DNA of 64,000 nt from positions 569,199-633,198 of the forward strand of contig CP000875.1 in the NCBI GenBank assembly GCA_000018565.1. Direction: 5' to 3'. The position numbers and the translations under genes are program-made. This DNA is from Herpetosiphon aurantiacus DSM 785 (lineage in GTDB: Bacteria; Chloroflexota; Chloroflexia; Chloroflexales; Herpetosiphonaceae). The notes under the pieces are model-generated. The model was not told where the DNA came from. It saw only the letters and a program-made list of their open reading frames with translations, and searched no databases. Positions 15,593 to 64,000 of this stretch are shown one piece after another; the first letter of the stretch is position 1, and each line of letters opens with the position of its first letter.

Positions 15593-15913
15593 CGGAATGG
15601 GAGCGGAGAAGGTGCTGGGTCTGTGAAAACCCTGCTGGTTCCCCTGCTGCAACGGTCATGTCCGTTTCAAGCAAAACGCTAACTCAAACGGGCATGACTG
15701 ATCTGAAGATAGTGATACAATTAATGCACGACGCTTCCGATGCGGCACACCCATTGCCAAAGAATGAAGCCGAGATGCTGCCCCAGTTTCGAGAGCATTT
15801 CCGACCAGCAATGTCCGCCTATCGGCACTCAGCAGCATCGACTATTTGTCATAGATAACACGCCGAGGCCCAATCTTACTCATCCTAAGGTTGCCTCGCT
15901 TTGGAGCAAACAT

Positions 15914-39668: not shown

Positions 39669-41183
39669 CTATACTCTCACGCGTTGGGCCGGTAGCTCAG
39701 TGGTAGAGCATCGGACTTTTAATCCGCTGGTCGTGGGTTCGATCCCCACCCGGCTCACCAAGCGGGATTGTTGCAAACTTCCTACGAGTTCCAGAAATGG
39801 TTCTCGTGGTTGGTAGGCGACAATCCCTTTTTTTGTGCCCCAAACGGCTGCAATGAGTGATTGTAAGGCTACGCGCTTCTCGGCTAATGCCCTCTTCTGC
39901 TTAAATGTCCAACTAATTGATTCTAATAAATCTAAGGCTTGCTCCATGTTAAAGGATGCAGCTGGTTTTTGGCGTGGTGCTTGGGCTTGAGCCAACAACG
40001 CTGATTTGCGCTGCTCATATTCATCAGCCCGGATGTGATCATTGAGAAACAGGCGCTTGAGTGCGGCAAGCTCGGCTTCAATGTTGGGGGCTTCGGGGGC
40101 TGGTTGTTGGTGTGCGTCCCACTGTTGCTGAGCAACCCGAAGAATATCGCGCTTCCAATCGCTGGGAAACGCCAAGGCATCAAGCACGGCAATCATATGC
40201 TGATCAAGCACATCGTTGCGCACCATGGCCATGGGGCATTGGTTGTAGCGGTGTTGGCTGCACTCATAGTACACAACGTTGGTTGTGCGCTTGTAGTGTT
40301 GCCACATGCGGCTGCCACATTGCTCACAATACAAAATTTCACTGAGCAGCCCACGGCCTTGGCTCACAGGAGTCCAGCCGCGCTTTTGGCCGCGCCGATC
40401 AAGCAAAACTTGTACCGCGTCCCATGTTTGTTGATCAATCAGCGCTTCATGTTGGCCAGCATAGGTTTGGCCTTTGTAGCTCACCTTGCCAATATAGGCT
40501 TGGTTGCGTAGCATCGATGCAACGTTGTCTTTGGTGTAGGGAACATAGCGCCCTTGTTGAGTGTTCCAAACTCGCGCACCACGTTGGTTCATGGCATCGG
40601 CGACGGTGCTGAAGCTATACAGTCCTGTGGCATAGAGTGTAAACAGCATGCGTTGATGCTCGGCATCGGCTGAAGGAACCAGCACCCCGTGCTCATTGCG
40701 TTGGTAGCCCGTTGGCACGGGGCCAGGTAATTTGCCTGATTCCGCAGCTGCACGGCGGGCACGTGCAACCCGTTCGCCTGTTAGTCGGCTATAGAGTTCG
40801 GCCCCAGCTCCTAACATCGTCAGATTGAAGCGGCCAGCAGCGGTATCCATCTCAATTGGCTCGGTAATTGAAATGAGTTGAATCCCCAGCGCGTGGAATT
40901 CATCAACCACCCGCAGCTGGAGCGAAGTGTTACGGGCGCAGCGGTCGAGCTTCCAAACTAACACAACATCAAAGCATCGTGGTTTCCGAGCGGCATCTTC
41001 ACGAAGCTGCATAAACGCGGGACGATCAGCATTGCGGCCACTCTTGCCAGCATCTTGATAGACCTGCACAACGTGCCAACCATGGCGTTGGGCATAGGCC
41101 TGACAATCACGCTCTTGGCTTGCAAGGCTGCTGTTTTCAGCTTGTTCACGGGTGGAAACCCGTGTATAGATAACGGCTCGCAT
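39669..41183 (-). CDS. Large serine recombinase (resolvase/invertase-domain site-specific integrase)
   Basis: N-terminal RAVIYTRVSTREQ catalytic Ser motif, recombinase domain, and zinc ribbon (CEQCGSRMW…YYECSQHRYNQCP). The C-terminal ~25 codons are the antisense of tRNA-Lys. Confidence 0.85.
   Translation of the reverse strand: MRAVIYTRVSTREQAENSSLASQERDCQAYAQRHGWHVVQVYQDAGKSGRNADRPAFMQLREDAARKPRCFDVVLVWKLDRCARNTSLQLRVVDEFHALGIQLISITEPIEMDTAAGRFNLTMLGAGAELYSRLTGERVARARRAAAESGKLPGPVPTGYQRNEHGVLVPSADAEHQRMLFTLYATGLYSFSTVADAMNQRGARVWNTQQGRYVPYTKDNVASMLRNQAYIGKVSYKGQTYAGQHEALIDQQTWDAVQVLLDRRGQKRGWTPVSQGRGLLSEILYCEQCGSRMWQHYKRTTNVVYYECSQHRYNQCPMAMVRNDVLDQHMIAVLDALAFPSDWKRDILRVAQQQWDAHQQPAPEAPNIEAELAALKRLFLNDHIRADEYEQRKSALLAQAQAPRQKPAASFNMEQALDLLESISWTFKQKRALAEKRVALQSLIAAVWGTKKGIVAYQPREPFLELVGSLQQSRLVSRVGIEPTTSGLKVRCSTTELPAQRVRV
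39686..39760 (+). tRNA. tRNA-Lys (anticodon TTT)
   Basis: Acceptor GGGCCGG/CCGGCTC (one G·U), D-arm GCTC-AGTGGTA-GAGC, anticodon loop CTTTTAA, T-arm GTGGG-TTCGATC-CCCAC, CCA encoded. Confidence 0.9.
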
Positions 41184-44565: not shown

Positions 44566-45014
44566 GACGTTCGCGTAGATACGCTAAGATTTGCTTTACC
44601 AAAGAATCTTTTTCTTCAACTAGCAGGATTAATAAAAGGAGACAGGCTGTTCCAGTAAAAAAAACTCGTTGATCTAACATTTCAAAAAGGGTGGATGACA
44701 TAAATATTATGAGGCACGCCCAAGTTCCATTGTTTATCTTTTTCATCTCTTATCCCTATACATAGGCAAACGTATGAGGGAGTATACCATTTTTTATCGT
44801 CCCCGAACATGAAAATTTGATGACAACGAATCTAGGTAGTGCCTTTGTGGCGCTAGAAACAATACCTAGCATAGTAATGCAGTTAATGAAATCCATACAT
44901 TTATGGGAGTACCATGAAGGAGGTAGTTAAAATCCCCCTCGATGAGAAGTACATTCTGTGATATGCTCTGTACTCGATAGTACCATTCACTCTTGATGCT
45001 TTGTGGAGGTTAGC

Positions 45015-46079
45015 ATGGTTGGCGCAGTCATTGATCTATTCTGTGGAGTTGGTGGGCTAACCCACGGGCTTATTCTTGAAGGTTTTGGCGTACTGGCAGG
45101 GATTGATAACGATCCTTCTTGTAAGTATGCCTATGAGCAAAATAATAGAACTCGTTTTATTGAAAAGTCTATTACTGAAGTTGATGGCAGAGAGTTAAAT
45201 GCCCTCTATCCCAATAATCAACATAAAATCTTAGTAGGCTGTGCCCCATGCCAAGATTTTTCTCAATATACGAAGAAGAGTCGTACTGGAACAAAGTGGC
45301 AATTACTCACAGAATTTTCGCGCCTTATTAGAGAGATCGAGCCTGATATTATATCAATGGAAAATGTTCCTGAGGTTCGAACATTCAATAGAGGGGAAGT
45401 TTTTAACAATTTTATTCAAGCACTTGAACAATTAGGGTATCACGTTTCGCATAGCGTGGTGCATTGTCCTGATTATGGAATTCCGCAGCAACGTGACCGA
45501 CTAGTCTTATTTGCTGCTAAACAGGGCGTTATTAAGATTATACCCCCAACCCACACTCCTGAGAACTATCGAACTGTACGTGAAGTTATTGGTTCTCTGC
45601 CACCAATTACTGCTGGCGGACACTGGGAGGGTGATAGCATGCATGCAGCCAGCAGACTAGAAGATATAAACCTTCGACGTATTCAGCATTCTGTGCCTGG
45701 TGGTACTTGGGCCGATTGGCCGGAAGAATTGATTGCAGAATGTCATAAAAAGGAAAGCGGTGAGAGTTATGGGAGCGTCTATGGTCGAATGGAATGGGAT
45801 AAAGTAGCACCTACCATCACTACACAATGCAATGGGTATGGTAATGGTCGCTTTGGTCATCCAGAGCAGGATCGCGCTATTTCGCTCCGTGAGGCTGCCT
45901 TACTTCAGACATTTCCGCGAAGTTATCAATTTGCCCCTGAAGGCCAACTGAAATTTAAGACAGTTAGTCGTCAAATAGGGAATGCTGTTCCGGTCGCACT
46001 AGGTCGTGTTATTGCAAAAAGTATTAAGCGTTTTTTGGAGGGTTTACATGAGCGACAGCGGGTACGAATTATCATTTAG
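45015..46079 (+). CDS. DNA cytosine-5 methyltransferase
   Basis: Motif I DLFCGVGG, motif IV GCAPCQDFS, motif VI ENV, motif VIII QQRDRLVLF, motif X GNAVPV; GGAGG RBS before ATG 45015. Confidence 0.9.
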   Translation: MVGAVIDLFCGVGGLTHGLILEGFGVLAGIDNDPSCKYAYEQNNRTRFIEKSITEVDGRELNALYPNNQHKILVGCAPCQDFSQYTKKSRTGTKWQLLTEFSRLIREIEPDIISMENVPEVRTFNRGEVFNNFIQALEQLGYHVSHSVVHCPDYGIPQQRDRLVLFAAKQGVIKIIPPTHTPENYRTVREVIGSLPPITAGGHWEGDSMHAASRLEDINLRRIQHSVPGGTWADWPEELIAECHKKESGESYGSVYGRMEWDKVAPTITTQCNGYGNGRFGHPEQDRAISLREAALLQTFPRSYQFAPEGQLKFKTVSRQIGNAVPVALGRVIAKSIKRFLEGLHERQRVRIII

Positions 46080-47877
46080 TCTTAATACATTGAATCACTT
46101 AAGCGAAGGTCTTTATAGTAATATTCCTGCGGTTTTATCTGAATTAGTTGCTAATGCTTGGGATGCCGATGCAACTGAGGTATCTATTAATATACGACAA
46201 GATGAAATAGTCATTCAAGATAATGGTATAGGAATGTCAATTGAGGATGCTAATACTAAGTTCTTACGAATTGGGCATCAAAAGAGAGAAGATTCAGCCA
46301 ACACTATAAGTGGACGGCATGTTATGGGCAGGAAAGGGATCGGTATACTGGCAATATTTGGTATAGCCAATATTGCTGAGGTTTATTCTTGTAAGGATGG
46401 AGTACCCCATGGATTTATAATTCGTAAAGGCGATATAGAAAGAGGGATAAGTAGCGATGTAACGTTGTATAGGCCATCACCGGTTCCTCAAGATGATTTA
46501 TCTATTGAATCAGGAACAAAGATTATATTACGAGAAATAAAATCTTCTATTGTAAATGCGGAGAAAACTCTAAGAACTGATCTTGCCCGGAGATTTACAA
46601 TTATTAATAATAATTGTAATTTTTCTGTAATTATTAATAATATACCAATTAGTGATAATGATCGTGATTATTTAAATAAAGTACAATTTCTTTGGTATCT
46701 TGGTGAAGAAAGTAGTAAATATGCTGATTTTTTTACTAAGCTAAAGAAATCATTTGAAATTACGAATCTAGTAGATGGAATGTCAGGTATAACTGTTAAG
46801 GGTTGGATTGGTACTGTATATCGTCCAAGTAATATTCCAACGAGCCACCGTACCATCTCTATTTTTGCTCATGGTAAAATGATTCAAGAAGATATTTTAA
46901 TAGATATAACTGATGCGGGTGTATATCGACAATATATCATTGGTGAAATTGAAGCAGATTTTATGGATAGCGATGATGAAGATGACATTATTACCAGTAA
47001 TAGACAAAGAATAAAGCAAACTGATCCTAGATATCTCAAGCTACTACAGTATGTCAAGGCAGATATTATGCGAGTTATTGCATCAATGTGGACTAACTTG
47101 CGAAAGGAATACCCATCTAAGCCAAAAAAAGAGGAAGTTAATGATAGTTCATCATCAAAAGATGCCAATTCTTCTGAACAAGAGAATACAAATGCTAGTA
47201 GTGATTCATCAAACACTACCGATGCTAGTAGTGATTCATCAAACACTACCGATGCTAGTAGTGAGACGAATGATGGTGATGTGGAAGATAATTCTTTTTT
47301 TGATGATGATATTCCTGAACCTAGCCCTCCACCTAAACAAGAAATTACTACTGCATTTAGAGAGATGAAGAATCTTGTTAAGAATAGTAATATTCCCGAT
47401 CAAATGAAAAATATTATTTTATATGATATTCAACAAGCAGCCTATGCTTATAAAGGAACATCATTTAAAGCTTGTATTGTAATGTTGGGAGCTATTCTAG
47501 AAGGTGTTATGCTTGGAACAATCCAGAGGACGGATGTACTAGAATACTTGATTACTTTACAGACAGTACCAAAGCCATTAAGTGATTTAGGCCCTAGAAA
47601 TCCTAAATTTGCTGATCGTACAGTGCTAGCCCAGTATATAGGGACTACCTTTTCATTTCAGGACTGTAAGGAAATAATAGAGCTATGTGTACAAGGTACT
47701 AATAAACTAGGTGTCGATATACTTCAAACGGTTAGAAATTCTATACATCCAGGTTCAGTATTAAAAGATATGAAACAACTAGCAAGGTTCAATCATCAAA
47801 GCGCTGTTGGTTACATTGCCAAACTACATGAAATTATTAATTTAGTGATTCTATGGAATCCTCCATCTATTCCATAG
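46048..47877 (+). CDS. GHKL (MORC/MutL-like, HATPase_c_3-type) ATPase with low-complexity repeat linker and unassigned C-terminal domain
   Basis: Bergerat-fold motifs: N-box SELVANAWDADA, G1 box IQDNGIGM, G2 box GRKGIGILAIFG. Ser/Asp/Thr-rich tandem repeat (SSDSSNTTDA x2). About 230 aa C-terminal domain without recognisable nuclease motifs. Start overlaps the MTase stop by 32 nt (translational coupling). Confidence 0.75.
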   Translation: MSDSGYELSFSLNTLNHLSEGLYSNIPAVLSELVANAWDADATEVSINIRQDEIVIQDNGIGMSIEDANTKFLRIGHQKREDSANTISGRHVMGRKGIGILAIFGIANIAEVYSCKDGVPHGFIIRKGDIERGISSDVTLYRPSPVPQDDLSIESGTKIILREIKSSIVNAEKTLRTDLARRFTIINNNCNFSVIINNIPISDNDRDYLNKVQFLWYLGEESSKYADFFTKLKKSFEITNLVDGMSGITVKGWIGTVYRPSNIPTSHRTISIFAHGKMIQEDILIDITDAGVYRQYIIGEIEADFMDSDDEDDIITSNRQRIKQTDPRYLKLLQYVKADIMRVIASMWTNLRKEYPSKPKKEEVNDSSSSKDANSSEQENTNASSDSSNTTDASSDSSNTTDASSETNDGDVEDNSFFDDDIPEPSPPPKQEITTAFREMKNLVKNSNIPDQMKNIILYDIQQAAYAYKGTSFKACIVMLGAILEGVMLGTIQRTDVLEYLITLQTVPKPLSDLGPRNPKFADRTVLAQYIGTTFSFQDCKEIIELCVQGTNKLGVDILQTVRNSIHPGSVLKDMKQLARFNHQSAVGYIAKLHEIINLVILWNPPSIP

Positions 47878-49512: not shown

Positions 49513-50388
49513 GTGAAATATATGCAACCTCAAGAAACCACACGTCGAGAATTGACCACCCTAAGCCATGCCGCTGTTGGAATTACATTGTGGCTTGAGC
49601 ACAACAACCATGGCTGGAGCGCATTTCTCTCAACCCCCAAAATGACCATTCAACACATTGGCAGTCGATATTACGAATTTTTTGTTGATGAGCTAATCCA
49701 ACACGCGATTAACTACGCCGACGAAGTAGCCGAAGAGTTTAACCCAACCCCAGCTGCACCAGCTGCCCCACTCAAGCCTGCTAAGAAAAAACCAACCCGC
49801 AAACAACCAAAGCAGCCTGTGTGCTATTGCCAATGCTGTAGCCCAACCCAAGGCGCAACAGGTGTTACCTATTGCCTGAAGGACAAAGAGTACGTTGCCC
49901 ACAATGGTGGCGAGTTGATCGGCTACTTCCCAACCAGCGATGCTGCTAGTAGCAAATTGAACAAGCTGCGTTATGAAATTTTATCGCGGGAGTTTCCAGA
50001 GCAGCCAGCGCACAAGTTTTTTGAGCCACTTGAAGATGAACTAACACGCGAGCCTGCTGCATCTTCAGCATCGGCTATTCCCCAAGCCCCAAGCTATTTC
50101 GTGATTGGTCAATTGGTTGGCCAACTACGCCAACTCTATGCTGGAAAAAAAGTTCAGCTTAATGCCATCAACAAAGCCTTTAGCGAATTGGCCGTGCCTG
50201 GCTGGTCGTGGGATGGCTCAAGCCTCACCATTCGTAGCCGCTCTAATCCTTCCATTTTGTATCACGTCAATGGCGATACCTGCCAATGTACTGCCTTTGC
50301 CAAAGGTGCGACGTGTTGGCATCGAGCAGCCTACAAGATCCTCTTGCAAGCAGCAGCGGCCCCAAATCATTATCAGAAAGCCGCCTAG
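49513..50388 (+). CDS. SWIM zinc-finger domain protein
   Basis: C-terminal CQCTAFAKGATCWHRAAY fits SWIM CxCx(n)CxH; Pro/Ala/Lys-rich linker. Confidence 0.5.
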   Translation: MKYMQPQETTRRELTTLSHAAVGITLWLEHNNHGWSAFLSTPKMTIQHIGSRYYEFFVDELIQHAINYADEVAEEFNPTPAAPAAPLKPAKKKPTRKQPKQPVCYCQCCSPTQGATGVTYCLKDKEYVAHNGGELIGYFPTSDAASSKLNKLRYEILSREFPEQPAHKFFEPLEDELTREPAASSASAIPQAPSYFVIGQLVGQLRQLYAGKKVQLNAINKAFSELAVPGWSWDGSSLTIRSRSNPSILYHVNGDTCQCTAFAKGATCWHRAAYKILLQAAAAPNHYQKAA

Positions 50389-52473: not shown

Positions 52474-52929
52474 ATGACACAACCATTCACCACTATCAAA
52501 CCCAAGCTTGAAGCCCCGTTCCCCATGGATATTATTGAGATAAAGCCCACTGTTGTCACGAAGGATAAGACCCGCGCTTTAGCTATTGCCTATGCCGAAG
52601 TCCGAGCCTATCAGGACAGGCTTGATGCTGTGGTTGGTGGTGAATGGGCTGTGACCTATCGCCCCTTAGGGCCAGGTGCGGTTATTTGCCAGCTGACCCT
52701 AGTTGGCATCACTCGTGAAGATGTTGGGGAAGCCGAGCAAACTGACCCGAATAAAGCGACGGTTGCCGTTGCCCAAGCGTTCAAACGCGCCTGCTCGGCA
52801 TTCGGGCTGGGCCGCTATCTGTACAGCATGCCAAAAGTATGGGCCGAATACGATCAGGAAAAAAAGTGCTTTGTGTACCCTGATCGCATTATTGCCCATA
52901 TGTATAAGCAGATTGGGATAAAGGTATGA
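52474..52929 (+). CDS. Rad52/Sak-family single-strand annealing protein
   Basis: …ATVAVAQAFKRACSAFGLGRYLY… matches the conserved Rad52/22 core (KRA..FGiGRYLY). Confidence 0.65.
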   Translation: MTQPFTTIKPKLEAPFPMDIIEIKPTVVTKDKTRALAIAYAEVRAYQDRLDAVVGGEWAVTYRPLGPGAVICQLTLVGITREDVGEAEQTDPNKATVAVAQAFKRACSAFGLGRYLYSMPKVWAEYDQEKKCFVYPDRIIAHMYKQIGIKV

Positions 52930-53132
52930 ACCTAGTCAATCTTGCAGGCACACAACTTCAGGTGCAGGAATATTTGCGGGCAGGCCAACTAGAGGCGGCC
53001 CGCAATATTTTAATCAATCGCAATATAAGCCCCCAGTTAATAGCGAAATGGCTAACGCCTGAGCAGCAAGAGGCACTGGGGTTTATTTCGCCGGAATTGA
53101 TGGCCGAGCTACAAACTGATAATCAAGCATAA
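52926..53132 (+). CDS. Hypothetical small protein
   Basis: 68 aa helical. Confidence 0.3.
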   Translation: MNLVNLAGTQLQVQEYLRAGQLEAARNILINRNISPQLIAKWLTPEQQEALGFISPELMAELQTDNQA

Positions 53133-53148
53133 GTAAAGGAAGCAAATC

Positions 53149-53604
53149 ATGGCAGCGGATACCAAGATCATCATCGTTGAAGGACAAGAGTTTCGGGTAC
53201 CGAGCGCAATGGAGATTGATGCAATTCGTTCCCATCTTGCCACCACATACCCTTCAGTAACATCGGCAATCATCACCAAGGGCAAACGCACAATTGAGGG
53301 TGAAGAGTACGAAACCATCGAGTTCGTCAAAAAAGTTGGCACAAAAGGCCTTGATTTAGTTGCAGCCTTGGAAGAGATCCCCCCTGCTTGGGATCTCTTC
53401 GATCTCTTCAGCACCAAACCACCAGTACCTATAGAGAAGTTACTAGCTGGTGGTTTGACCTTTGGCGAAGCCATGCTCATGAATTTGGATACTGAGCTAA
53501 GCAAACGATTTGAAAAAAAATATAACCGCGAGGAATCAGCACTATGCCTGCACTTAGCCGAATTGCCCGCAAGCGCCGATCAAGATCTGCCATTGGGTTG
53601 GTAA
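53149..53604 (+). CDS. Candidate ubiquitin-like (beta-grasp, ThiS/MoaD-like) protein with C-terminal extension
   Basis: N-terminal about 70 aa KIIIVEGQEFRVPSAMEIDAIRSHL…TIEGEEYETIEFVKKVGTKG has a ThiS/MoaD-like pattern; downstream KLLAGG motif; lies immediately upstream of the E2-JAB-E1 genes. Confidence 0.35.
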   Translation: MAADTKIIIVEGQEFRVPSAMEIDAIRSHLATTYPSVTSAIITKGKRTIEGEEYETIEFVKKVGTKGLDLVAALEEIPPAWDLFDLFSTKPPVPIEKLLAGGLTFGEAMLMNLDTELSKRFEKKYNREESALCLHLAELPASADQDLPLGW

Positions 53605-54542
53605 AGGTTAGCTCTTTGACCCCTGCGGGCTTTAGTGATGAAACCATCATTAAAGAATGGAATGATGTACTGCATGGGGTTCGGCTAATGCAGCGTTACG
53701 ATCCTAGTTATTATGAACAGATTCGCGATGAACCATTGACGTTGGTAAAGGGTAAGTCTTGTTTTATCAGAATGGCATATCTGGTTGAAGATCTTGTTTC
53801 CACAACCATGAATTTTCAAGATTATATGGAGTGGAGACAAGAGGACTTCGATCCCTATGATGATGCCGATGATATTGCCAATGATGATCCTGCCCTCTCG
53901 GAAAGCTATAGTCTTGATCTGCGATTTGAGATTGCCGGGCAATGGCTTGATGAAACCCCTTTAGCCGTTTTTGGTTTACCGATTCATGCTGGTGAAGCTG
54001 GAGATATGTTTCATCTTGCAATGTGGCTTACGCGGTATCCATTTCATACTACACCCTACGATGTTATGCGGTTCGATGGTGATCGCTATTTCGTGAAAGA
54101 TAAAGAAATTTTTCAAGCGCTGAAAACATTTGACCCTTTGCCTGAGCATATTCATATCCATGGATTAATTCAAGAATTAAATCGCAAAAAGATCTATGGG
54201 TTTGAGCTTGGAACCTTGATTCAATATGCATTGCGCATTACTGGTGATGTGTTTGCCGATGTTTCTATGGCAGAACTGGAAGTTGGTGGATGGGATGACG
54301 GCATAGATTGGGCTAACCCTGATATGGTCGCCTCAGTCCAAGATCGTCAACGTCGAGCCGATGCGCTGTGCAGCCAATTCCATGACTTTGCAGCATGGCT
54401 TGATCGCAACAATGAATATGCGATCGATATTTTGCTCAATATTTATGGAGCCGCTGCGGTCGTACTGGCTAATGATACCCAACGCCCAGCAACCTTAATG
54501 GAGTTAGTCAATGCCAACGATGAAGTACCCCAGACCATATAA
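53544..54542 (+). CDS. Hypothetical protein (332 aa) within Ubl-conjugation cassette
   Basis: No recognisable motif. Confidence 0.35.
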   Translation: MPALSRIARKRRSRSAIGLVKVSSLTPAGFSDETIIKEWNDVLHGVRLMQRYDPSYYEQIRDEPLTLVKGKSCFIRMAYLVEDLVSTTMNFQDYMEWRQEDFDPYDDADDIANDDPALSESYSLDLRFEIAGQWLDETPLAVFGLPIHAGEAGDMFHLAMWLTRYPFHTTPYDVMRFDGDRYFVKDKEIFQALKTFDPLPEHIHIHGLIQELNRKKIYGFELGTLIQYALRITGDVFADVSMAELEVGGWDDGIDWANPDMVASVQDRQRRADALCSQFHDFAAWLDRNNEYAIDILLNIYGAAAVVLANDTQRPATLMELVNANDEVPQTI

Positions 54543-55191
54543 GCGAGAAATCGTGTTTGATAAAAGCCCGAAGCTTCAGCTAGATTTCTTCGATAATGCG
54601 GTGATTATGACCCGCCGTGAGCCATCTGGTTGGTCATCATACCCAGTCGATGTTAGTGAGGTTGCAAAGGTATTAAGCGGTATCCCCCAATCATCGGGAT
54701 TGCTCCCTCAAAATACCTTAGGCTATGGAAGCTATAAAGGCAGTTCCTTCTACTGCATGTATATTCCACCAAAATCCATCACGATAGAGCTTGCCAATAA
54801 TGATCGGTTAACGATTCCCATTCCACCGCTCGTTTGGCGTGGTTGGAAACAAAACTATCAGATTTGGGCATTAGCCACTGAAGCCTATCCTTTAGCGTCA
54901 ACACCCTTATTTATGGCTCCCTTCCCTAATGTGTACCCGAATGCGATGATTTGCTGGGGTGATAGTGATGATCGTTTGCCTGCTGGCCCAAGCACGATGC
55001 AGGCAATGCTTGACCTCTTTTTGATAGGCAGTCGTTTCAATACCCATTTGGTTGGTGGTAAGAGCATGCGTTCATCTGGCAATATTATCAATCTGTACCA
55101 TAGGATTAAAGGTAAGGCTATGTATCCACTTCATGATTTATGTGCTACTGATTTAGTTCTTGAAAACGTGTTGGAAGGGGGATTTGCATGA
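54511..55191 (+). CDS. E2-like (UBC-fold) ubiquitin-conjugating enzyme homolog
   Basis: FPNVYPNAMICWG aligns with the eukaryotic E2 HPNIYSNGSIC(LDIL) active-site motif (Asn and catalytic Cys at identical spacing). Confidence 0.55.
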   Translation: MPTMKYPRPYKREIVFDKSPKLQLDFFDNAVIMTRREPSGWSSYPVDVSEVAKVLSGIPQSSGLLPQNTLGYGSYKGSSFYCMYIPPKSITIELANNDRLTIPIPPLVWRGWKQNYQIWALATEAYPLASTPLFMAPFPNVYPNAMICWGDSDDRLPAGPSTMQAMLDLFLIGSRFNTHLVGGKSMRSSGNIINLYHRIKGKAMYPLHDLCATDLVLENVLEGGFA

Positions 55192-55841
55192 TCCCAAACC
55201 TTCACCGCTACCATATTGTTACTGAAGCGGAACCATATCCCCCTAATCAGCCAGGCTTGACGTGGCTGATCGCAGCGAACGGCATCTTCAAAAGTGGCTG
55301 CGATCGCCATCAGCGCTTGATTATTCAAGTCTCCGAGCAGCGCATTGATCTACCTGGCATGGTCGCGATTATGCCGATGATTCACTGGTTCAATTATCCC
55401 AAACGCTTACCATCTGCTTGGTTATCAATGCTGCTTGCAGATGCCCAAAAGGCTTCTATTATCACCAATGGAGTAGCACGACCAATCGAGAAACAATACT
55501 TTGTAGTTAATAAAGATGATCGGCTGAAGCTGATTATTGCTCCCCAACAAGCTAGTGCCTTGAGGGTGCATTATCAAATGCCGTCGGCACCAATCTTTGT
55601 TGATATTCATAGCCATCATGGTATGCCTGCTTACTTTTCGGCCACCGATGATGCTGATGATACAGGCCTCTCAATTTCATGTGTGATCGGCAACATCTAT
55701 AGCAACCCTGAAATCATTTGTCGATTAAACATCTATGGCCAACATCAAGTTGTGCCTATTACCACCATTTTTGATGGTTGTGGCCCTTTTGCCGATGTGG
55801 GACAACGAGAGGGGGATCGCTATGCAAATGCTCAGTTTTGA
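55188..55841 (+). CDS. JAB/JAMM (MPN+) metalloprotease
   Basis: IHSHHGMPAYFSATDDADD fits the JAMM motif HxHx7Sx2D. Confidence 0.65.
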   Translation: MIPNLHRYHIVTEAEPYPPNQPGLTWLIAANGIFKSGCDRHQRLIIQVSEQRIDLPGMVAIMPMIHWFNYPKRLPSAWLSMLLADAQKASIITNGVARPIEKQYFVVNKDDRLKLIIAPQQASALRVHYQMPSAPIFVDIHSHHGMPAYFSATDDADDTGLSISCVIGNIYSNPEIICRLNIYGQHQVVPITTIFDGCGPFADVGQREGDRYANAQF

Positions 55842-56700
55842 GCCTATTGCCCCGTTTGTAATAGGAAACCAGTCACGCTTTCATATCACTATTGTTGGGG
55901 CTGGTGGTACTGGCTCTTATATCGTGCAAACTGTGGCTCGGTTAATGGCGCATGCCAATGAGAAGGGTTCCCCCAAAATCGATGTAACGCTGGTTGATGG
56001 CGATACAATTGAAGCAAAAAATATTGGTCGTCAACTCTTTGCCCCAGCCGAAATAGGCCGAAATAAAGCACAATCATTGGCTACTCGGTTCAACCAAGCC
56101 CTAGGCCTCAAAATACAAGCTATACCCACAATGATCGATCAATATTCGCTTCCGCATGTTGATCGCTATCAATGGCATCAATCGGCTGCGCTTGATAAGC
56201 GGCCCTACTCAATTGTTGTGGGCGCTGTCGATAATGCCGAAGCACGCAAGGTTATTCATGATGGTTTAGCTAAATATGTCTTTAACCTATGGATTGATAG
56301 TGGCAACCACGAGCATGGGGGACAAGTGCTTGTAGGCAACTGCGTAGCACCGCATAAGCTAAAAGGAAGCTTTGCCCTTGAGGGAATGGTGCAATCATTA
56401 CCAGCACCATCGTTGATGGCACCATCGCTGATAACACCACCAGAGCCACTGCCTGAATCGCAGCAGCTTGATTGTGCAACCGCGATGGAGAATAACCGCC
56501 AATCCTTACTTATTAATCAGCAAATGGCCTCAATTGTTGGCCAATACTTACATCAAATCATCTTTACCCAACGCTTGACCACTTTTGAAACAATTGTCGA
56601 TATGAGCACACTCACGATGCGAAGCACCCCAATCACGGTTTCTAATGTGGCTCAATGTCTTGGGGTAACGTCTGCATTTTTAAAAGGAATTAACGCATGA
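55822..56700 (+). CDS. E1-like ThiF/MoeB-family adenylyltransferase
   Basis: Rossmann ITIVGAGGTGSY; DGDTIEAKNIGRQLF (ThiF D-x-D-x-x-E-x-x-N-x-x-RQ); GAVDNAEAR. Confidence 0.7.
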   Translation: MQMLSFEPIAPFVIGNQSRFHITIVGAGGTGSYIVQTVARLMAHANEKGSPKIDVTLVDGDTIEAKNIGRQLFAPAEIGRNKAQSLATRFNQALGLKIQAIPTMIDQYSLPHVDRYQWHQSAALDKRPYSIVVGAVDNAEARKVIHDGLAKYVFNLWIDSGNHEHGGQVLVGNCVAPHKLKGSFALEGMVQSLPAPSLMAPSLITPPEPLPESQQLDCATAMENNRQSLLINQQMASIVGQYLHQIIFTQRLTTFETIVDMSTLTMRSTPITVSNVAQCLGVTSAFLKGINA

Positions 56701-57617
56701 CCACACAACTAACCTTATTCGATTACAACGCGCTGGATACTGAAACCCGCGTTATCGTTCAGCAAAAAGCGGTCGAAATTCGGGATCGAATGCGCAGCGC
56801 TGCGCAGGCCGTCATCGAGATTGGTGAGCGGCTGATCGATGTGAAAGAACGCTTGGGCCATGGCAAGTTTGGGCAATGGCTTGATGCAGAATTCCAATGG
56901 TCAGCTGATACCGCCCGTAACTATATGAATGTTGCTGAGCGGTTTGGTCAAAATCCGAAAATTTCGGAATTTGCACCATCGGCCTTATATTTGTTGGCAG
57001 CCCCATCAACACCAGAGGATGCCAGAACTGAAGCGATCAATCTAGCCGAGCAGGGCCAAAAGATTACCCATGCAGTAGCAAAGCAAATTGTAACCACCCA
57101 CAAAGAGCAAGCAGCGCCAAAGCCCAAGCCAGCAGCTGCACCAGCAGTGCCAAAACCTGAACCTAAGCTTGAGATCCCCCCAATGCTCATCATTGGCGAT
57201 AAGACGGTTCCTAGTGCTGAATTCACAGGCACGCCAACACCAAACACAATTGATGATAGTGAGAGCGAAGAGCTAGCCAGCCAGCCACTGGTTGAAACGC
57301 CATCTGAACAACCAGACTTACCACCAATGCTTACCATTGGCCAACCAAGCCCAGCGGCTGCCGTTGAAATCGATACGAAGCCCTTGGCTTATGCAATCGT
57401 GGTGCAGGAGTTGGCGCGGCAAATGGTTACACTTGCCAACCAGCGCGTGAAGTTATTAGAAGATCAAATTGAGGCCCAAGGGAAAGAGGTTATTCAACCA
57501 TTCATTGATACAGAGCAGATGGCTGAAGCAGCTGCATCATTTATTGGAACGCCTGCATTCAAGTCACAAGCTGGCTTGTTGGCCTTTGGGGTGAAGGTTA
57601 ACCTTCGGGATTTCTAA
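56697..57617 (+). CDS. Hypothetical protein with N-terminal DUF3102-like helical domain and Pro/Ala-rich linker with internal PPML(I/T)IG repeats
   Basis: N-terminal YNALDTETRVIVQQKAVEIRDRMRSAAQAVIEIGERLIDVKERL; contains the second copy of the 23-bp palindrome in its coding sequence. Confidence 0.4.
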   Translation: MTTQLTLFDYNALDTETRVIVQQKAVEIRDRMRSAAQAVIEIGERLIDVKERLGHGKFGQWLDAEFQWSADTARNYMNVAERFGQNPKISEFAPSALYLLAAPSTPEDARTEAINLAEQGQKITHAVAKQIVTTHKEQAAPKPKPAAAPAVPKPEPKLEIPPMLIIGDKTVPSAEFTGTPTPNTIDDSESEELASQPLVETPSEQPDLPPMLTIGQPSPAAAVEIDTKPLAYAIVVQELARQMVTLANQRVKLLEDQIEAQGKEVIQPFIDTEQMAEAAASFIGTPAFKSQAGLLAFGVKVNLRDF

Positions 57618-57620
57618 ACA

Positions 57621-57656
57621 AGCCTGCCTGCTGTCTGAAACAGCAGGCAGGCTTGA
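57621..57656 (+). terminator. Strong hairpin at end of long + operon
   Basis: caagcctgcctgctgt-ctgaa-acagcaggcaggcttg perfect 16-bp stem; weak T-tract. Confidence 0.45.
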
Positions 57657-57700
57657 CATTTGTGCTAGGATTTAAAAGATTTACATATTTGGGTATTTCT

Positions 57701-58891
57701 ATGATGCAACCACTTACAAATATCAGTAAAGCTGTAGATAGGATTATTGAATCACTTCCACAATTACAGCCTGTTTTGGAATCAACGACTTATAGACTTG
57801 GTGATGACTCTATTATCATTCGAAATAAGTATCCAGAATATCGAAACCAATTAAAATTACATAAAGATTTACTATCTAATATAATATTGGAAGAGTTAGA
57901 TAATAAGGAATTTAATTTTATTATAGATGAATCTGATATTAATTTTATTGAATTCGATAGAATTTCTTCAAAAAGATCAGTATCTAAAAATATAAATCAT
58001 AATTTTAATATAGAAAATAATATAAATTTAAATTTCTATACTTCTCAATCAATAGATGTAATAGATTCTGGTATATCACAATATTTAGATGATTTTAAAA
58101 AAAGAATGGTGTGGCCTCACTACAAAATAATAAGAAAAAAAGAAAATTCATCAAAAATAGTTTACGAAATATCATTCATTTCGATTGGTGAATTGGGGTT
58201 TATCACAGATATGACGGGAAAGATCTATTTAAGGAAAATAGGCGGAGGTGGATTTAACATCAAATATATAAATCCATTCCATATAAAAGATAATATAGAT
58301 AAGTTAGTTGAATTTCACCTCGAGGAATTTGATAAAATAAAGAAATGGCATAACTTTGAAATAGATATTCTTGAATCATCTATAGATTCTTCAAGAAATA
58401 TTATAGTTATTTCTAGAGAGATATTTGAATATATTGAATATAGCTTAAAAGAAGATGAAATAATTGAAGATAATGATTTATATAGAATTAATAGAAATAA
58501 TGAATATTACGTAAACCTTGATAGAATAAAAGAACTATCAAAAATTCAATCAAAAGATTTTGATATTACTAAACTAGTGAAATTATGTTTAGAATTAAAT
58601 ATATCATTTTCAAATGAGTGTTATTTTGCAGCTATATTTATTCTTAGGGCTATTATAGATCATATACCACCAATATTTGGACATATTAATTTTGATAATG
58701 TAGTAAGTAACTATAAAGGTAATTCTGGCAAAAAAATATTAAATCATCTTTTGGTTACGTTAAAAAATACTGCTCATATAAATATCCATAAACCTATTTC
58801 TAGGAAAGAAATTATTCCAAATCGACAACAAGTTGATTTTAAAAGTGAGATAGACTTTCTATTATCAGAGATAATACAAGAACTGTCATAG
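57701..58891 (+). CDS. Hypothetical protein encoded by an extremely AT-rich orphan gene (about 397 aa)
   Basis: Asn/Ile/Lys-rich composition; GC far below flanking DNA; no recognisable catalytic motif. Confidence 0.45.
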   Translation: MMQPLTNISKAVDRIIESLPQLQPVLESTTYRLGDDSIIIRNKYPEYRNQLKLHKDLLSNIILEELDNKEFNFIIDESDINFIEFDRISSKRSVSKNINHNFNIENNINLNFYTSQSIDVIDSGISQYLDDFKKRMVWPHYKIIRKKENSSKIVYEISFISIGELGFITDMTGKIYLRKIGGGGFNIKYINPFHIKDNIDKLVEFHLEEFDKIKKWHNFEIDILESSIDSSRNIIVISREIFEYIEYSLKEDEIIEDNDLYRINRNNEYYVNLDRIKELSKIQSKDFDITKLVKLCLELNISFSNECYFAAIFILRAIIDHIPPIFGHINFDNVVSNYKGNSGKKILNHLLVTLKNTAHINIHKPISRKEIIPNRQQVDFKSEIDFLLSEIIQELS

Positions 58892-59375: not shown

Positions 59376-60314
59376 ATGGCTTCATCACTCGCGATTGGCC
59401 TCAATCCCATCGAGTTACACATCCTGTTGCTCGTCGCTCGGTTGGGCCGCTTGCTTTCACGTCACCTTCGCACAGCGTGGGGCCATCCGTTTACGGTGAC
59501 GATTCAAACGGTTAATCGCACCTTGGCCAAGCTCGTCGATGCCAAACTGCTCACCTATTGCGAACACTTTCAATCGCATGGCTATGACCCACGTGGTGCG
59601 CTGGGCTGGACACGCCATGGCCGCTTATATAGCCTCACGCCCCTCGGCTGGGAGATCGTCAAACAGGCTTTTCCGATGCTTGAAGAAGGCAGTGAGCGGC
59701 TGGCTCCCACGATGTTCAATCCCCAACATCAAGCGGAACACCAGATTGAATATGCCGAGGTCATCACCAGTTTGATTCAGTCATTACCCTACGTGCCTGG
59801 CATTGTCGGGATGAGCAGTTATATCGAAATGGACTTAGGGCCAACCGCACGGCCACGCGCCGACGGCATTGTCGTGGTGCGCCGCTGGGCCGATGCAACG
59901 CAGACCGATCGTGAGCGCTCGTCGCTCTATCCATGGCTGGGGGTTAGCCAACAAGCAGGCCAGATCGATCAACTGTATGCCATTGAGATTGATCGGGGAA
60001 CCGAGGAACTGAGCATTATTACGGGTAAGGCCCACTCCTATGGGGAGTTATATCGCTCGAAGTATTGGGAAGGGCGCTATCAATGGCCGCTGATTGCCTT
60101 TACCGTGCCGAGCGAACGCCGCAAACGGGCTGTGCTCGATGCGTGGGAAATCGGCTGGCCCGGCAGTCAGCTGCTGATTGCCACTATCGACGAGGTGCGT
60201 GAGTCAGGTATTCTCACGCCGATCTGGACAACCCAGTACACCAAGGATGGGCAACGTATCCAGCAGCCACATCGGTTTTTGAAGGTAAAGTGGTTTGAGA
60301 AGATTGTGGCGTAG
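59376..60314 (+). CDS. Hypothetical protein with N-terminal winged-HTH-like segment
   Basis: GAGGAGG RBS 6 nt before ATG 59376; LLLVARLGRLLSRHLRTAWG…LAKLVDAKLL HTH-like. Confidence 0.4.
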   Translation: MASSLAIGLNPIELHILLLVARLGRLLSRHLRTAWGHPFTVTIQTVNRTLAKLVDAKLLTYCEHFQSHGYDPRGALGWTRHGRLYSLTPLGWEIVKQAFPMLEEGSERLAPTMFNPQHQAEHQIEYAEVITSLIQSLPYVPGIVGMSSYIEMDLGPTARPRADGIVVVRRWADATQTDRERSSLYPWLGVSQQAGQIDQLYAIEIDRGTEELSIITGKAHSYGELYRSKYWEGRYQWPLIAFTVPSERRKRAVLDAWEIGWPGSQLLIATIDEVRESGILTPIWTTQYTKDGQRIQQPHRFLKVKWFEKIVA

Positions 60315-60360
60315 GTACAATATTATAATGCGTATAACCTACATACTTATAATACTGTTA

Positions 60361-60415
60361 AACCCTCATCCTCCTCTCTTCCATAAGCGACCCCTAGTGG
60401 GTCGTTTGTGGTTTT
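60361..60415 (+). ncRNA. Conserved CT-rich hairpin element (copy 2)
   Basis: aaaccctcatcctcctctcttccataagcg + GACCC-ctagt-GGGTC hairpin + tttgtggtttt; see copy 1 at 20349-20413. Confidence 0.35.
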
Positions 60416-61105
60416 CGGAATACGCGACAGTAGTATAAATGTTCTAATTTGGGTGATCTGAAGATTCTTGATTATCGATCTTTGTTTCTAGAGTTAGTTT
60501 TTTCTTGTAATATGTGGTGTTCTCGGCTTAGCACAATTTATTTACTTGGCATAACAAAATGGTATCGTGATGTAAGTATATGTTTGGCAACAAAAGATCA
60601 ACTGGAAGTCATATGATTATAGTTATGAATACACTATTTGAAGATTTTTTTAGACACTTCATTCTATTATACGATTTTAACTCTTCTTTTTTTGATTTCA
60701 TATGTCATTTGAATCATTTTGATTGGATATCAGCTAGTCTTTATCTTTTCTAATGCTAATTTAAGACTGTCATTATAAGGCTTTCTAATGATAAATTAAC
60801 CATAATATCAAATTGAAACCATTACTTATATAAAGCCTAGGATGGAATTTTGCGAACAGACAATATGCTATACTGTTCTAGATTAGGCCCCCTCCCGCTA
60901 GGAAGCATCGAGGGGGCTTCTCTTATGATGTATGTTGTGTACCACATTTTATCCTCAATTCCTCTACGGGCATCAAAATGTGATGTACAAGTAAAGGTTT
61001 CTGTGCTGTCCTTCATAACCTTCCTTTTTCTACATGCATGGCTTTGGCCGCATTAACGTGGGTTACATCAGCAGTCCTATCGATTCTTGATATGGAGGGT
61101 TCTTT

Positions 61106-64000
61106 ATGTATGCTCAGCGTGTGGCTAATTTTGTTCAGGAATATCAACGATATATCAATAATTCAGCGAATGAAGAGGAGCTTCGGAGCGGGTTTTATCT
61201 GGCTGCTACTAATGCTTTGGGTATTCCAAATTTTACCCTAGAACGAGGCCGGCAGGATATCCGCCGGAATCGTGTCATTCTAGAGTTTAAGAATAAAGGC
61301 CTATTTCGAGGTCAATCCACCAGCCTTAAATTTAAAGAGGCGCAGGATCAACTCATTAATAGGTATATCCCTCAGCAATCGCTTCGTGATGGGAGAAGGC
61401 CCTCAGATTATATTGGCGTGTGTTTTGATGGAGAACATCTTGCCTTTACCTTTGTTGAACCAGATCAAACGGTTCGGGTCACGAAACTATTGCCATTTGA
61501 TGAACATAGTGCTGGGGCTTTGGTTATGGCGCTTGACGTTGATGATCGGCGTGAACTAACCCCACAAAATGTTATTGATGATTTTGGTCCATCTTCCTTT
61601 ATTGCGCGACAGACCCTACAAGCATTATGGCATCACTTAAATGTATCTCTTGATATGGGTGTCAAGCGGATACACATGCTCTTTACCGAATGGAAAAGTC
61701 TTTTCCAACAAGGAACAAGCATTGGTACACGAGGGCGACAGAAACTTCAGGCGTATCTTCAGTCAGTGGGTTTACCTGAATCTGCTGATATCACCCGTCT
61801 CCTTTTTGTCCTTCATACCTATCATGCACTTTTTTTCAAATTGCTTGCGGCTGAGGTTGTGCTGACAAATGCTATTATCCCGGGTATGACCCAAACCGAT
61901 TTTTGTTTTTCTACCGCAGGACTTCCTGATCGATCCCTTATTAAGTTGTTGGTAGATGATATCGAGGAATCAAAAGTATTTCGCCGTGTCAACATCCTCA
62001 ATTTTGTTGAGGGGACTTTTTTTACCTGGTATACACATGAGGCTCCCGCAGGATTGATTGAAGCAATTCGACAGATTATGCAGCGGCTTAACCTTTATCG
62101 GCTAAGCGATCTTCAACTGGAACGAACACGCGATATTGTGAAGTATGTTTACGAGCAAATAGTTCCTGAACCGCTTCGTCATAGTCTGGGGGAATATTTC
62201 ACGCCAGAATGGCTGGTTGAGTTTACTCTTGATCGTGTTGGATATCAAGGCTCCCAAATTTTGGATCAGAAGATTCTCGATCCATGCTGCGGCTCAGGCA
62301 ATTTCCTTATTCATGCTATTGAGCGCTATAAACAGGCGGCTCACGCCCAAGGATGGGATGATTCTGCTATTCTTCATGGCATTACCAATCACATCTTTGG
62401 ATTTGACCTAAACCCTCTTGCCATGTTAACTGCACGGGTTAACTATCTTATTGCGATTTCGGATCTCTTGAAAACTTCATCTGCGGTTGAAATCCCTGTA
62501 TATCAAGCCGATGCCGTTTACATTCCAAAGCCCCGACCTGATGATCCGACTATTTATCGCTATGATATTTCAACCCGTCTAACAGGGTGTCCTATACTCG
62601 CCCTAGATATCCCTGTATCCCTAATTCACAAACAACATTTGTTTGCACGAGTGCTTGAGGAGATGGAAGAGTCGATAAATGAGCACCAGCATACCTCTGC
62701 ATTTATTACACATCTTAAGAGAAATCCTGAATTCTGTAGAGTAGAGGATCATCTTGACTGGATTCCATATCTGGAAAAAATGTTTAATGACATCCAGTTT
62801 CTTGAATCACGCTCATGGAATCGGATATGGTGTCGGATTGCGCGAAATTACTTTGCCTCCGTTGCAATAGGGTCTTGCGATATCGTTGCTGGTAATCCAC
62901 CCTGGGTTCGTTGGTCTGAATTACCCCAGCTTTATGCGGAGAAAATTAAACCGATTTGTGATGAATATGGAATTTTCTCTGATGAACGTTTTTTTGGGGG
63001 GAATGAGCTTGATATATCGGGGATGATAACCTATACCGTTATTGACCAGTGGTTGGATGAGGGTGGTAAGCTGGCCTTTATTCTTCCACAAAATCACCTG
63101 CAATCTCAGTCATCTGGTGGATTTCGTCAGTTTCAGATTCGCGAAACCCCGTTAGAGGTTTTACAGGTTGATGATTTTAGCGAGGTTAAACCATTCCGCC
63201 GCGTAGGTAATCGTCCCGCAGTGATAACCATCTACAAGGGGCGAGCTACAACCTATCCTGTTCCCTATAACATATGGAAACGTATAACCCCAACAACTAT
63301 CTCTGAAAATGTAAGCTATGCGACTGCGGCTGAGAATCTTCTATCGATACCTCATGAAGCTTATGCATTAGAGGACGCAGGAAAACGTTGGAGTATTCTT
63401 CCGCTAGGACGATTTCCTCTCCTTTCCATGTTGAATGGTGAGGACAGGTCAATTGAAGGCCGTAAGGGTATTGTTACCGATTTGAATGGGGCATACTTTA
63501 TTCGAATTCTTGGCCATGGTTATCGGACTGGAACTCTTCGTTTTAAAACTTCTCCAGATCAGGGTCAAAAACCTGTACCAGAGCGAACATATGAGATTGA
63601 GGCTGACCTTGTATATCCTCTGATAAAAGGGGCAAAAAATGTTCAACCATTTTATGCCACCACAAGCGAGTTAGCCGTAATTGTTCCTAATAAGGGGATT
63701 AATTCATCCTCTATGCCATCCATGTCTCGACTGACTTATCAGGGGTATCCACTAGCAGCACGTTATTTCCAGTCTCTGAATCGCGATGTGCTCATTGATG
63801 GTGTTGGCCTACTCGATCAACGATCAACTTGGCGAACCCGAATGCGGCCATTTTTGGAAAAACAATATGCCGATAATCTTGCCGATATACCCTTTTATGC
63901 AATCTATAACGTAGGAGACTATACATTTGCTCCCTATAAGGTTGTATGGGCAGAAATGTCTGGAAGTCTTAAGGCGGCAGTGATTTCTGATGGTCTTGTA
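61106..64000 (+). CDS. Type IIG-like fused restriction endonuclease / N6-adenine DNA methyltransferase (MmeI/BREX-PglX-like), 3' end beyond window
   Basis: N-terminal PD-(D/E)xK-like motif (RQDIRRNRVILEFKNKG); MTase motif I LDPCCGSGNFL and motif IV GNPPW (gamma-class N6A MTase); GGAGGG RBS; ORF open to window end (965 codons). Confidence 0.7.
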   Translation, partial: MYAQRVANFVQEYQRYINNSANEEELRSGFYLAATNALGIPNFTLERGRQDIRRNRVILEFKNKGLFRGQSTSLKFKEAQDQLINRYIPQQSLRDGRRPSDYIGVCFDGEHLAFTFVEPDQTVRVTKLLPFDEHSAGALVMALDVDDRRELTPQNVIDDFGPSSFIARQTLQALWHHLNVSLDMGVKRIHMLFTEWKSLFQQGTSIGTRGRQKLQAYLQSVGLPESADITRLLFVLHTYHALFFKLLAAEVVLTNAIIPGMTQTDFCFSTAGLPDRSLIKLLVDDIEESKVFRRVNILNFVEGTFFTWYTHEAPAGLIEAIRQIMQRLNLYRLSDLQLERTRDIVKYVYEQIVPEPLRHSLGEYFTPEWLVEFTLDRVGYQGSQILDQKILDPCCGSGNFLIHAIERYKQAAHAQGWDDSAILHGITNHIFGFDLNPLAMLTARVNYLIAISDLLKTSSAVEIPVYQADAVYIPKPRPDDPTIYRYDISTRLTGCPILALDIPVSLIHKQHLFARVLEEMEESINEHQHTSAFITHLKRNPEFCRVEDHLDWIPYLEKMFNDIQFLESRSWNRIWCRIARNYFASVAIGSCDIVAGNPPWVRWSELPQLYAEKIKPICDEYGIFSDERFFGGNELDISGMITYTVIDQWLDEGGKLAFILPQNHLQSQSSGGFRQFQIRETPLEVLQVDDFSEVKPFRRVGNRPAVITIYKGRATTYPVPYNIWKRITPTTISENVSYATAAENLLSIPHEAYALEDAGKRWSILPLGRFPLLSMLNGEDRSIEGRKGIVTDLNGAYFIRILGHGYRTGTLRFKTSPDQGQKPVPERTYEIEADLVYPLIKGAKNVQPFYATTSELAVIVPNKGINSSSMPSMSRLTYQGYPLAARYFQSLNRDVLIDGVGLLDQRSTWRTRMRPFLEKQYADNLADIPFYAIYNVGDYTFAPYKVVWAEMSGSLKAAVISDGLV

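Follow-up and report, generated by a model that had tools for sequence, protein, structure and literature searches.

What does a set of ubiquitin-like (Ubl) conjugation genes do inside a bacterial mobile element, and to which of the described classes of such systems does it belong? The question is raised by an unbroken series of closely packed, same-strand genes at 52474-57617 in a 64,000-nt stretch of Herpetosiphon aurantiacus DSM 785 (CP000875.1; hereafter the window, in whose positions all coordinates are given). The original prediction described there an E2-like protein, a JAB/JAMM peptidase and a ThiF-type E1 with a candidate beta-grasp Ubl upstream, all within a recombinase-bearing element, and family profiles, catalytic residues, structure models and synteny agree with that description. 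The cassette is a Ubl conjugation operon of the PRTRC class, which is the '6d' class of Iyer, Burroughs and Aravind (2006, PMC1779556), and we put at about 60% the probability that it is a complete conjugation and deconjugation module, housed in an integrated element, within its early operon for replication and recombination, and working by the cascade proposed below. Its genes and domains are the following (lengths in amino acids, aa):

53149-53604, forward strand: Ubl-X precursor gene, 151 aa (Pfam Prok_Ub, E=6.8e-4, below the cut-off)
53149-53349, forward strand: beta-grasp Ubl, residues 1-67 of the precursor, with the tail K-K-V-G-T-K-G (GTKG at 53338-53349)
53350-53601, forward strand: X domain, residues 68-151, helical, 84 aa, with a conserved C-terminal Trp
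53598-54542, forward strand: F-position protein, 314 aa from a TTG start; a longer open reading frame (ORF) begins at 53544
54520-55191, forward strand: E2-like protein, 223 aa, or 226 aa if it starts at 54511 (Pfam Prok-E2_D, E=2.3e-18)
55188-55841, forward strand: JAB/JAMM metallopeptidase, 217 aa (Pfam Prok-JAB, E=2.2e-8)
55822-56700, forward strand: E1-like adenylyltransferase, 292 aa, in an ORF reaching back to 55735 (Pfam ThiF, E=7.5e-18)

The gene starts match independent calls on L014, a metagenome contig identical to the window. All the genes listed in the original prediction are where it had placed them, with family matches much stronger than chance would give; what it overlooked is the conserved 314-aa gene at 53598-54542.

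The class of the cassette was assessed with the NCBIfam models and their curated cut-offs (PRTRC_ThiF, 144.75 bits; PRTRC_A, 101.8; PRTRC_B, 131.45; PRTRC_C, 45.95). At 148.3 bits the E1 passes the cut-off for PRTRC_ThiF, while the JAB (56.7 bits against PRTRC_A), the E2 (55.2 bits against PRTRC_B) and the Ubl (18.2 bits against PRTRC_C) remain under theirs, these sub-threshold matches being the sole ones that the three proteins have in NCBIfam. No neighbouring ORF matches the models for PRTRC ParB, PRTRC_E or PRTRC_F, even at E<=10. A canonical PRTRC operon, found beside DnaB in the isolated Burkholderia phage BgVeeders33, reads E-C-(61 aa)-F-B-A-ThiF and so shares with the window the order C/Ubl, F position, B/E2, A/JAB and ThiF/E1; its PRTRC_E, C and F score over the cut-off. 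The window differs in that only its E1 does so (A, B and C give 18-57 bits against 46-131), in that PRTRC_E, PRTRC_F and PRTRC ParB were not detected, and in having a Rad52 and a 68-aa gene upstream and a DUF3102 gene downstream in ParB's stead.

The resemblance to the '6d' operon extends further. This operon comprises a Ubl, an alpha-helical protein, an E2, a JAB and an E1 (PMC1779556, Table 1), and the passages devoted to it describe an E2 that lacks the classical His but keeps a His beyond the Cys, a JAB extended at its N-terminus by a further domain, and an alpha-helical protein that diverges quickly while retaining some charged residues. The window has the Ubl, a stand-alone beta-grasp gene within the operon as in '6d', the E2, the JAB and the E1, with the fast-diverging F-position protein as fifth component; it also has an E2 without the HPN His and with a later His, a JAB with an N-terminal domain, and a location in mobile DNA. 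The cyanobacterial '6d' members, on Anabaena and Nostoc plasmids, are its nearest plasmid relatives (~28% E2 identity). Unlike the members treated in those passages, the window belongs to a Herpetosiphon-type lineage of Chloroflexi, absent from the sampling of 2006, in which DUF3102 always lies downstream, and its Ubl-X fusion, GTKG terminus and block exchange have no counterpart in them. The cassette is therefore best described not as a new system but as a divergent new member of a class that was predicted in 2006 and is covered by Pfam and NCBIfam, the E2 and the E1 being already named by standard annotation; the TIGRFAM PRTRC families are the proteobacterial core of this class. One preprint wrongly expands PRTRC as a pilus system.

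Besides PRTRC, the original prediction had named Bil, Bub and Cap2/Cap3 as possible relatives, and these fall away. The PADLOC models for Bil, Bub and CBASS (anti-phage systems that signal through cyclic oligonucleotides) match neither the Ubl, the E2 nor the JAB, and the E1 has weak partial matches to the CBASS E1-E2 models, with E-values of at least 6e-11 over ~90 residues. A Cap2/Cap3 Type II CBASS was rejected on gene content as well: the E2 and the E1 are separate genes, and no Pfam nucleotidyltransferase match was seen in the neighbouring ORFs scanned. Membership of Bil was rejected in view of the Prok-E2_D type of the E2, the single adenylation domain of the 292-aa E1 and the same absence of PADLOC matches for E2, JAB and Ubl. 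The cassette does resemble BilABCD in the order and logic of Ubl, E2, JAB (the deubiquitinase, DUB) and E1, and in a Ubl with a conserved Gly beyond which lie residues that have to be taken off by the DUB before adenylation can take place (PMC10557695). Unlike the window, however, BilABCD has a CEHH-type E2 and a multidomain E1 (IAD/AAD/CYS; PMC10557695), whereas the window has a Prok-E2_D protein and a much smaller E1, possesses X and F in addition, matches no defence model and lies in an early operon, not in a defence island.

The catalytic residues of all three enzymes are conserved across 9-10 relatives. In the E2 (numbered on the 226-aa form; alignment A1, 10 homologues), the invariant positions are APFPN at 136-140, I-C-W-G at 147-150 with Cys148, and H179, K184 and S185, so the FPN...C core that had been read from the sequence, with its Cys, is sustained in all of these homologues. 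FPN (138-140) replaces HPN, the conserved His179 lies C-terminal to C148, and N140 and C148 are 8 residues apart, the spacing that also separates HPN from the Cys in UbcH5-type E2s. The AlphaFold2 (AF2) model of this protein, built from only 10 sequences, reached a predicted local distance difference test (pLDDT) score of 76 and had no match in Foldseek, nor did a profile of the alignment match any PDB sequence; the putative ubiquitin-conjugating (UBC) fold is assigned mainly from family membership and the motif, with the structural comparison leaning towards it without deciding the matter. In the JAB, E101 and the H-x-H-x7-S-x2-D motif noted earlier (H141, H143, S151, D154) are conserved across loci. 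The JAMM motif occupies residues 101-154 of 217, after an extra N-terminal domain of ~95 aa, and the nearest solved chain is the BilC DUB (E=0.09). As for the E1, the motifs that had suggested a ThiF-type enzyme are present as GAGGTG at 26-31 and GRQ at 69-71 (R70); GxGGTG, the Arg of NxGRQ, the Asp of VD (D137) and Cys218 ('DCA') are conserved in all correctly extracted sequences. Its nearest solved chains are UBA5 and Uba4 (E ~6e-5).

These last relatives bear on an alternative that we judge highly improbable, namely that no protein is conjugated at all and that the cassette is a ThiS/MoaD-type sulfur-carrier or small-molecule or peptide modification system in which the 'E2' acts as an acyl or sulfur relay. 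The E1 is indeed a minimal ThiF-type enzyme whose closest solved relatives include Uba4 and UBA5, and the beta-grasp also resembles MoaD and ThiS, but the E1 scores only 20-42 bits with the ThiF, MoeB and TcdA equivalog models against cut-offs of 150-450 (ThiF, 41.6 against 159; MoeB, 22 against 376) and is likewise far under the cut-off for SAMP-E1. PRTRC_ThiF is its best family, and no thiamine, molybdopterin, rhodanese or cysteine-desulfurase genes were found in the neighbourhood, so that a role in thiamine or molybdenum cofactor biosynthesis, one of the outcomes that the original prediction had named as speaking against it, was rejected. Moreover, an FPN...C E2 and a JAMM peptidase are conserved partners of this E1, and the poly-Ubl and Ubl-fusion precursors described next typify protein modifiers.

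A HMMER scan of 1.84 billion representatives returned 91 clusters of the Ubl family, 69 of which were used for the alignment. The AF2 model of Ubl-X derived from these 69 sequences (pLDDT 82.6 overall) shows a beta-grasp at residues 5-60 (pLDDT 91-98), which bears out the ThiS/MoaD-like character proposed for the first ~70 residues, followed by an unstructured tail at 61-67, helices across 68-137 and a floppy C-terminus. Five positions of the tail (K61, G64, T65, K66, G67) stand out, each being conserved in 90% or more of the 69 sequences; G67 is present in 66/69. The earlier proposal of a precursor processed by the JAB stands, with the cut moved to a position after G67; the internal LLAGG suggested as the di-Gly site was rejected, its second Gly (G102) being found in just 6/69, and G101-x-L-T is a structural motif of X.

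The gene forms of the family are informative about this site. In 75/91 clusters the motif is followed by an extension of more than 15 aa (X), which ends in Trp in 64 of the 75; six stop exactly at the motif, three carry a tail of 3-14 aa, three are tandem poly-Ubl genes (two with four repeats, one with two) and four have no motif (two truncated fragments and two variants). All poly-Ubl repeats end in G-T/E-K-G, and P0054 and P0099 consist of four head-to-tail repeats, each ending in GTKG. The P0054 locus (L016 6001-12280, NGLF01000003.1) encodes four beta-grasp repeats ending in SGTKG, then a 173-aa gene, a 502-aa gene, Prok-E2_D, JAB and ThiF; with a long JAB (506 aa), a ThiF of 364 aa and ParA close by, it is a larger-format version of the operon. 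In L008 and L017, where the Ubl ends at GTKG, X has an ORF of its own that overlaps the Ubl by ATGA, and the canonical PRTRC_C of BgVeeders33 likewise reads ...AVGTKG before a C-terminal extension. Since the same family thus occurs as fusions, exact-end genes and poly-Ubl genes, these forms imply processing by the JAB after G67: G67 is most likely the C-terminus of the mature Ubl, and the JAB of the operon most likely the maturing enzyme.

Eukaryotic ubiquitin genes are built in comparable ways, as poly-Ub, as Ub-L40 and Ub-S27a fusions and with a short C-terminal cap, and a peptidase exposes the terminal Gly. The Ubl family shares with them the head-to-tail repeats, the N-terminal fusion and the short cap forms. 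It differs in that its tail is GTKG and not LRGG, in that its fusion partner is a system-specific helical domain, and in that the putative processing enzyme is a JAMM metalloprotease of the same operon.

Between Ubl-X and the E2, at every related locus, sits the gene that we refer to by its position as F. No family in Pfam, NCBIfam, PHROG or PADLOC matches its product, and protein searches with the sequence and with a nine-sequence profile recovered, apart from the query, a single cyanobacterial sequence. The protein contains a TGN-x-F/Y-A/L-D motif and conserved D221 and E226, and hhalign relates it to its cyanobacterial counterparts at E=0.0018. The F-position protein is likely the counterpart of the novel alpha-helical protein of '6d' and, by position, of PRTRC_F. 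In a separate observation, the F-position gene of L009 (3081-5128; IMG/VR 3300005985_000004) appears to be tandemly duplicated between Ubl-X and the E2, one copy having 339 aa and the other, of ~340 aa, lying inside a 466-aa ORF, which fits F as a diversifying component.

The cassette was compared with the elements L001, L003 and L004 of H. llansteffanensis and H. giganteus and, separately, with L013. The flanks of the cassette have ~87-94% nucleotide identity to the H. llansteffanensis and H. giganteus elements, whereas 53150-56749 has only ~37-74%; taken as a whole, the stretch from Ubl to E1 is ~55-65% identical. Against L003, identity drops from 89-92% to 74% at the start of the Ubl (53150), stays at 37-74% until 56749 and then rises to 94% in DUF3102, with abrupt transitions where the Ubl begins and where the E1 ends. 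Protein identities to L001, L003 and L004 (for Replic_Relax, to L003 and L004) follow the same pattern:

Rad52: 93-95%
68-aa protein: 86-87%
Ubl beta-grasp: 79-83%
X domain: 42-43%
F-position protein: 42-43%
E2: 55-56%
JAB: 62-63%
E1: 59-60%
DUF3102: 91-93%
Replic_Relax: 87-89%

Within the cassette, therefore, constraint is strongest on the Ubl and weakest on X and F, the F-position protein having the lowest identity (42%). Against L013 the relationship is reversed, with 96-99% identity in the cassette and 89-92% in Rad52, DUF3102 and a 291-aa gene (49513-50388). There are thus two Herpetosiphon alleles of the cassette, ~60% identical, within elements that are otherwise ~90% identical. The low identity of the block between similar flanks, and its reversal in L013, lead us to conclude that the cassette has been exchanged as a unit: Ubl-X, F, E2, JAB and E1 stay together both in inheritance and in exchange.

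The remaining genes of the series, and the structure that closes it, are these:

52474-52929, forward strand: Rad52-like single-strand annealing protein (SSAP), 151 aa (Pfam Rad52_Rad22, E=1.3e-5)
52926-53132, forward strand: small protein, 68 aa, with a 4-nt start/stop overlap with Rad52
56697-57617, forward strand: DUF3102 protein, 306 aa (Pfam DUF3102, E=5.4e-12)
57620-57654, forward strand: perfect 15-bp hairpin directly 3' of the DUF3102 stop, AAGCCTGCCTGCTGT-CTGAA-ACAGCAGGCAGGCTT, read from the sequence

Nearly every junction from Rad52 through DUF3102 is a start/stop overlap, of 4-23 nt. The Rad52-like SSAP and the 68-aa gene belong to the same tightly packed operon and lie outside the exchanged cassette. 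The same holds for DUF3102: it is co-transcribed, its start overlaps the E1 stop, and it lies outside the block exchanged among Herpetosiphon elements. DUF3102 is found downstream of the E1 in every locus of the Chloroflexi-type clade (L001, L003, L004, L008, L009, L013, L014 and the P0005 contig), and its product matched no PDB sequence. The Rad52 and DUF3102 neighbours given in the original prediction are thus both recovered by Pfam. The hairpin probably marks the end of the transcription unit; it was missed by a terminator scan because it has no T-run.

Two smaller observations concern these flanks. The heptapeptide KWLTPEQ is identical in the 68-aa protein (53068-53088) and in a 214-aa protein of L011 (4826-5470; motif at 4835-4855), both encoded upstream of Ubl-X, in the window and in Nostoc respectively, and may be a shared motif or a product of chance. 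Between DUF3102 and Replic_Relax lies a 412-aa ORF (57653-58891; ~39% GC) without a family match, which is missing at that position in L003 and L004 and has a 31-32% identical counterpart in L001, as in a variable cargo slot.

A large serine recombinase gene (39669-41183, reverse strand) opens the element that houses the operon, near 39.7 kb, in keeping with the recombinase-bearing element proposed at the outset. A complete tRNA-Lys(UUU) gene (39686-39757, forward strand; Rfam, 73 bits) lies on the opposite strand inside the last ~35 codons of the recombinase ORF, which suggests that the element is integrated at or beside tRNA-Lys and that the C-terminal tail of the recombinase reads through the attachment region. 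Further genes encode a DnaC/IstB-like ATPase, helix-turn-helix proteins, the Replic_Relax protein and, at 45003-47877, a Type II restriction-modification (R-M) pair composed of a C5-cytosine methylase (Pfam, 267 bits) and an HATPase_c_3 protein with a match from end to end to PADLOC REase_II (PDLC03485; 1324 bits). The R-M pair looks recently acquired, since its GC content is 35-41% against ~47-53% in its surroundings. At 60300-64000 there is no ORF of more than 74 aa on either strand, the GC content is ~42% and no notable repeats were seen; Rfam gave no match to this region at E<=0.1, and neither blastn nor tblastx showed similarity with other parts of the window or with the related Herpetosiphon loci.

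The nearest relatives of the element, in H. llansteffanensis and H. giganteus, are listed in IMG/VR as proviruses of ~48 kb, and no virion genes were seen in the 10-kb flanks of the relatives, which hold only replication, recombination, segregation, integrase and peptidase genes. In one of them, L003, three minus-strand genes (14563-17587) beside Replic_Relax form an operon whose products are DprA/SLOG-like, HAD plus phosphoribosyltransferase, and a trypsin-like peptidase. The window lacks this operon, which resembles a conflict system. More distant relatives of the cassette occur on cyanobacterial plasmids (43 records, 26 of them typed conjugative), among them Nostoc pANSO36B, where the cassette lies ~5 kb from the relaxase. 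The cassette DNA itself has no DNA-level similarity to the plasmid records. In L010, a cyanobacteria-like relative, a ParB gene is directly upstream of Ubl-X.

This last arrangement recalls the 'ParB/ThiF partitioning cassette', according to which the genes are a partition, maintenance or addiction module in which protein modification and its reversal stabilise inheritance of the element. Canonical PRTRC contains a ParB homologue, the assumption is repeated in the literature on integrative and conjugative elements (ICEs) and plasmids, and an addiction-like role is among the speculations offered in the '6d' passages of PMC1779556. However, no ParB domain was found among the larger ORFs of the element (39.7-60.3 kb) scanned against Pfam, where DUF3102 fills the neighbouring slot, the cassette is also present in integrated elements and in the genome of a virulent-capable phage, where partition is not needed, and the idea has never been put to the test (PMC13366799). 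We regard this explanation as quite improbable.

How, then, would the module work? In the cascade that we propose, translation would first yield a precursor in which the beta-grasp is joined to the 84-aa helical X, and the JAMM peptidase would cleave this precursor after Gly67 of GTKG, releasing mature Ubl and free X in equal amounts. The ThiF-type E1 would adenylate Gly67, with a probable thioester on the conserved Cys218, and the Ubl would pass to Cys148 in the FPN...C core of the E2, which would join it to lysines of the targets. The JAB would also undo the conjugation. X and the F-position protein, the fastest-evolving parts, would confer specificity or regulation; judging from their divergence they probably determine specificity.

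Several points weigh against this reading. The E1 is short and has no recognisable Cys domain or ubiquitin-fold domain (UFD), and the thioester on C218 is therefore a guess. The other Herpetosiphon allele has GTKA and not GTKG at the proposed Ubl terminus, the family matches of the Ubl fall under the curated cut-offs, and the F-position protein has no detectable homology to the PRTRC_F of BgVeeders33 (hhalign, E=0.52). Neither an E3 nor a target has been identified. No experimental study of the PRTRC/'6d' class had appeared to date according to PMC13366799 (2026), and the literature searched for functional work on PRTRC, Prok-E2_D or DUF3102, like the leading-region and anti-defence papers searched for ThiF, yielded only annotation-level mentions. 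Finally, operon coupling and partner genes are indirect evidence, and nothing at hand parts a role in the service of the element from anti-phage defence.

With regard to that role, our leading though tentative guess is that the module serves the element at replication or establishment by modifying DNA-handling proteins of the host, of rival elements or of the element itself. We make it because the cassette is translationally coupled within a recombination and replication operon and because its partners recur as ParB, DUF3102, SSAP, DnaB and relaxase. With the same biochemistry, the cassette could instead be cargo for anti-phage defence or superinfection exclusion, protecting the lysogen or host in the manner of BilABCD, which ubiquitinates a phage tail protein. 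We consider this somewhat unlikely. In its favour, related classes are defence systems (6b corresponds to CBASS type II and 6c to Type II Bil, PMC10557695; the NCBIfam name of 6A-MBL marks it as an anti-phage system), the element also encodes the Type II R-M system, an arms race would be consistent with block exchange and with the quick divergence of X and F, and the possibility is raised in the '6d' passages of PMC1779556. Yet PADLOC has no match for the Ubl, F, the E2 or the JAB, the cassette is not a separately oriented moron but is translationally coupled between Rad52 and DUF3102, and in other loci it is accompanied by ParB, DnaB, relaxase, DnaC-like and ParM-like genes and not by defence islands.

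A bolder version of the element-serving role, which we think unlikely, is that of an offensive system of mobile genetic elements and not a host defence, in which eukaryote-style Ubl precursors are matured by the system's own JAMM peptidase and an interchangeable cartridge of X, F, E2, JAB and E1, setting the specificity, lets phages, plasmids and ICEs tag host immune or rival-element proteins at establishment. If true, it would give a function to the 20-year-old enigma of PRTRC and provide a bacterial precedent for the processing of ubiquitin precursors.

PRTRC/'6d' operons are widespread on plasmids, ICEs and phages, and theirs is the only one of the classes 6a-6e for which we found no functional study in the literature. 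For this family the Herpetosiphon locus supplies an intact, divergent example together with comparative evidence for the site of Ubl maturation, in the form of GTKG and of the fusion and poly-Ubl precursors, and its two cassette alleles are a natural experiment that delimits the functional unit.

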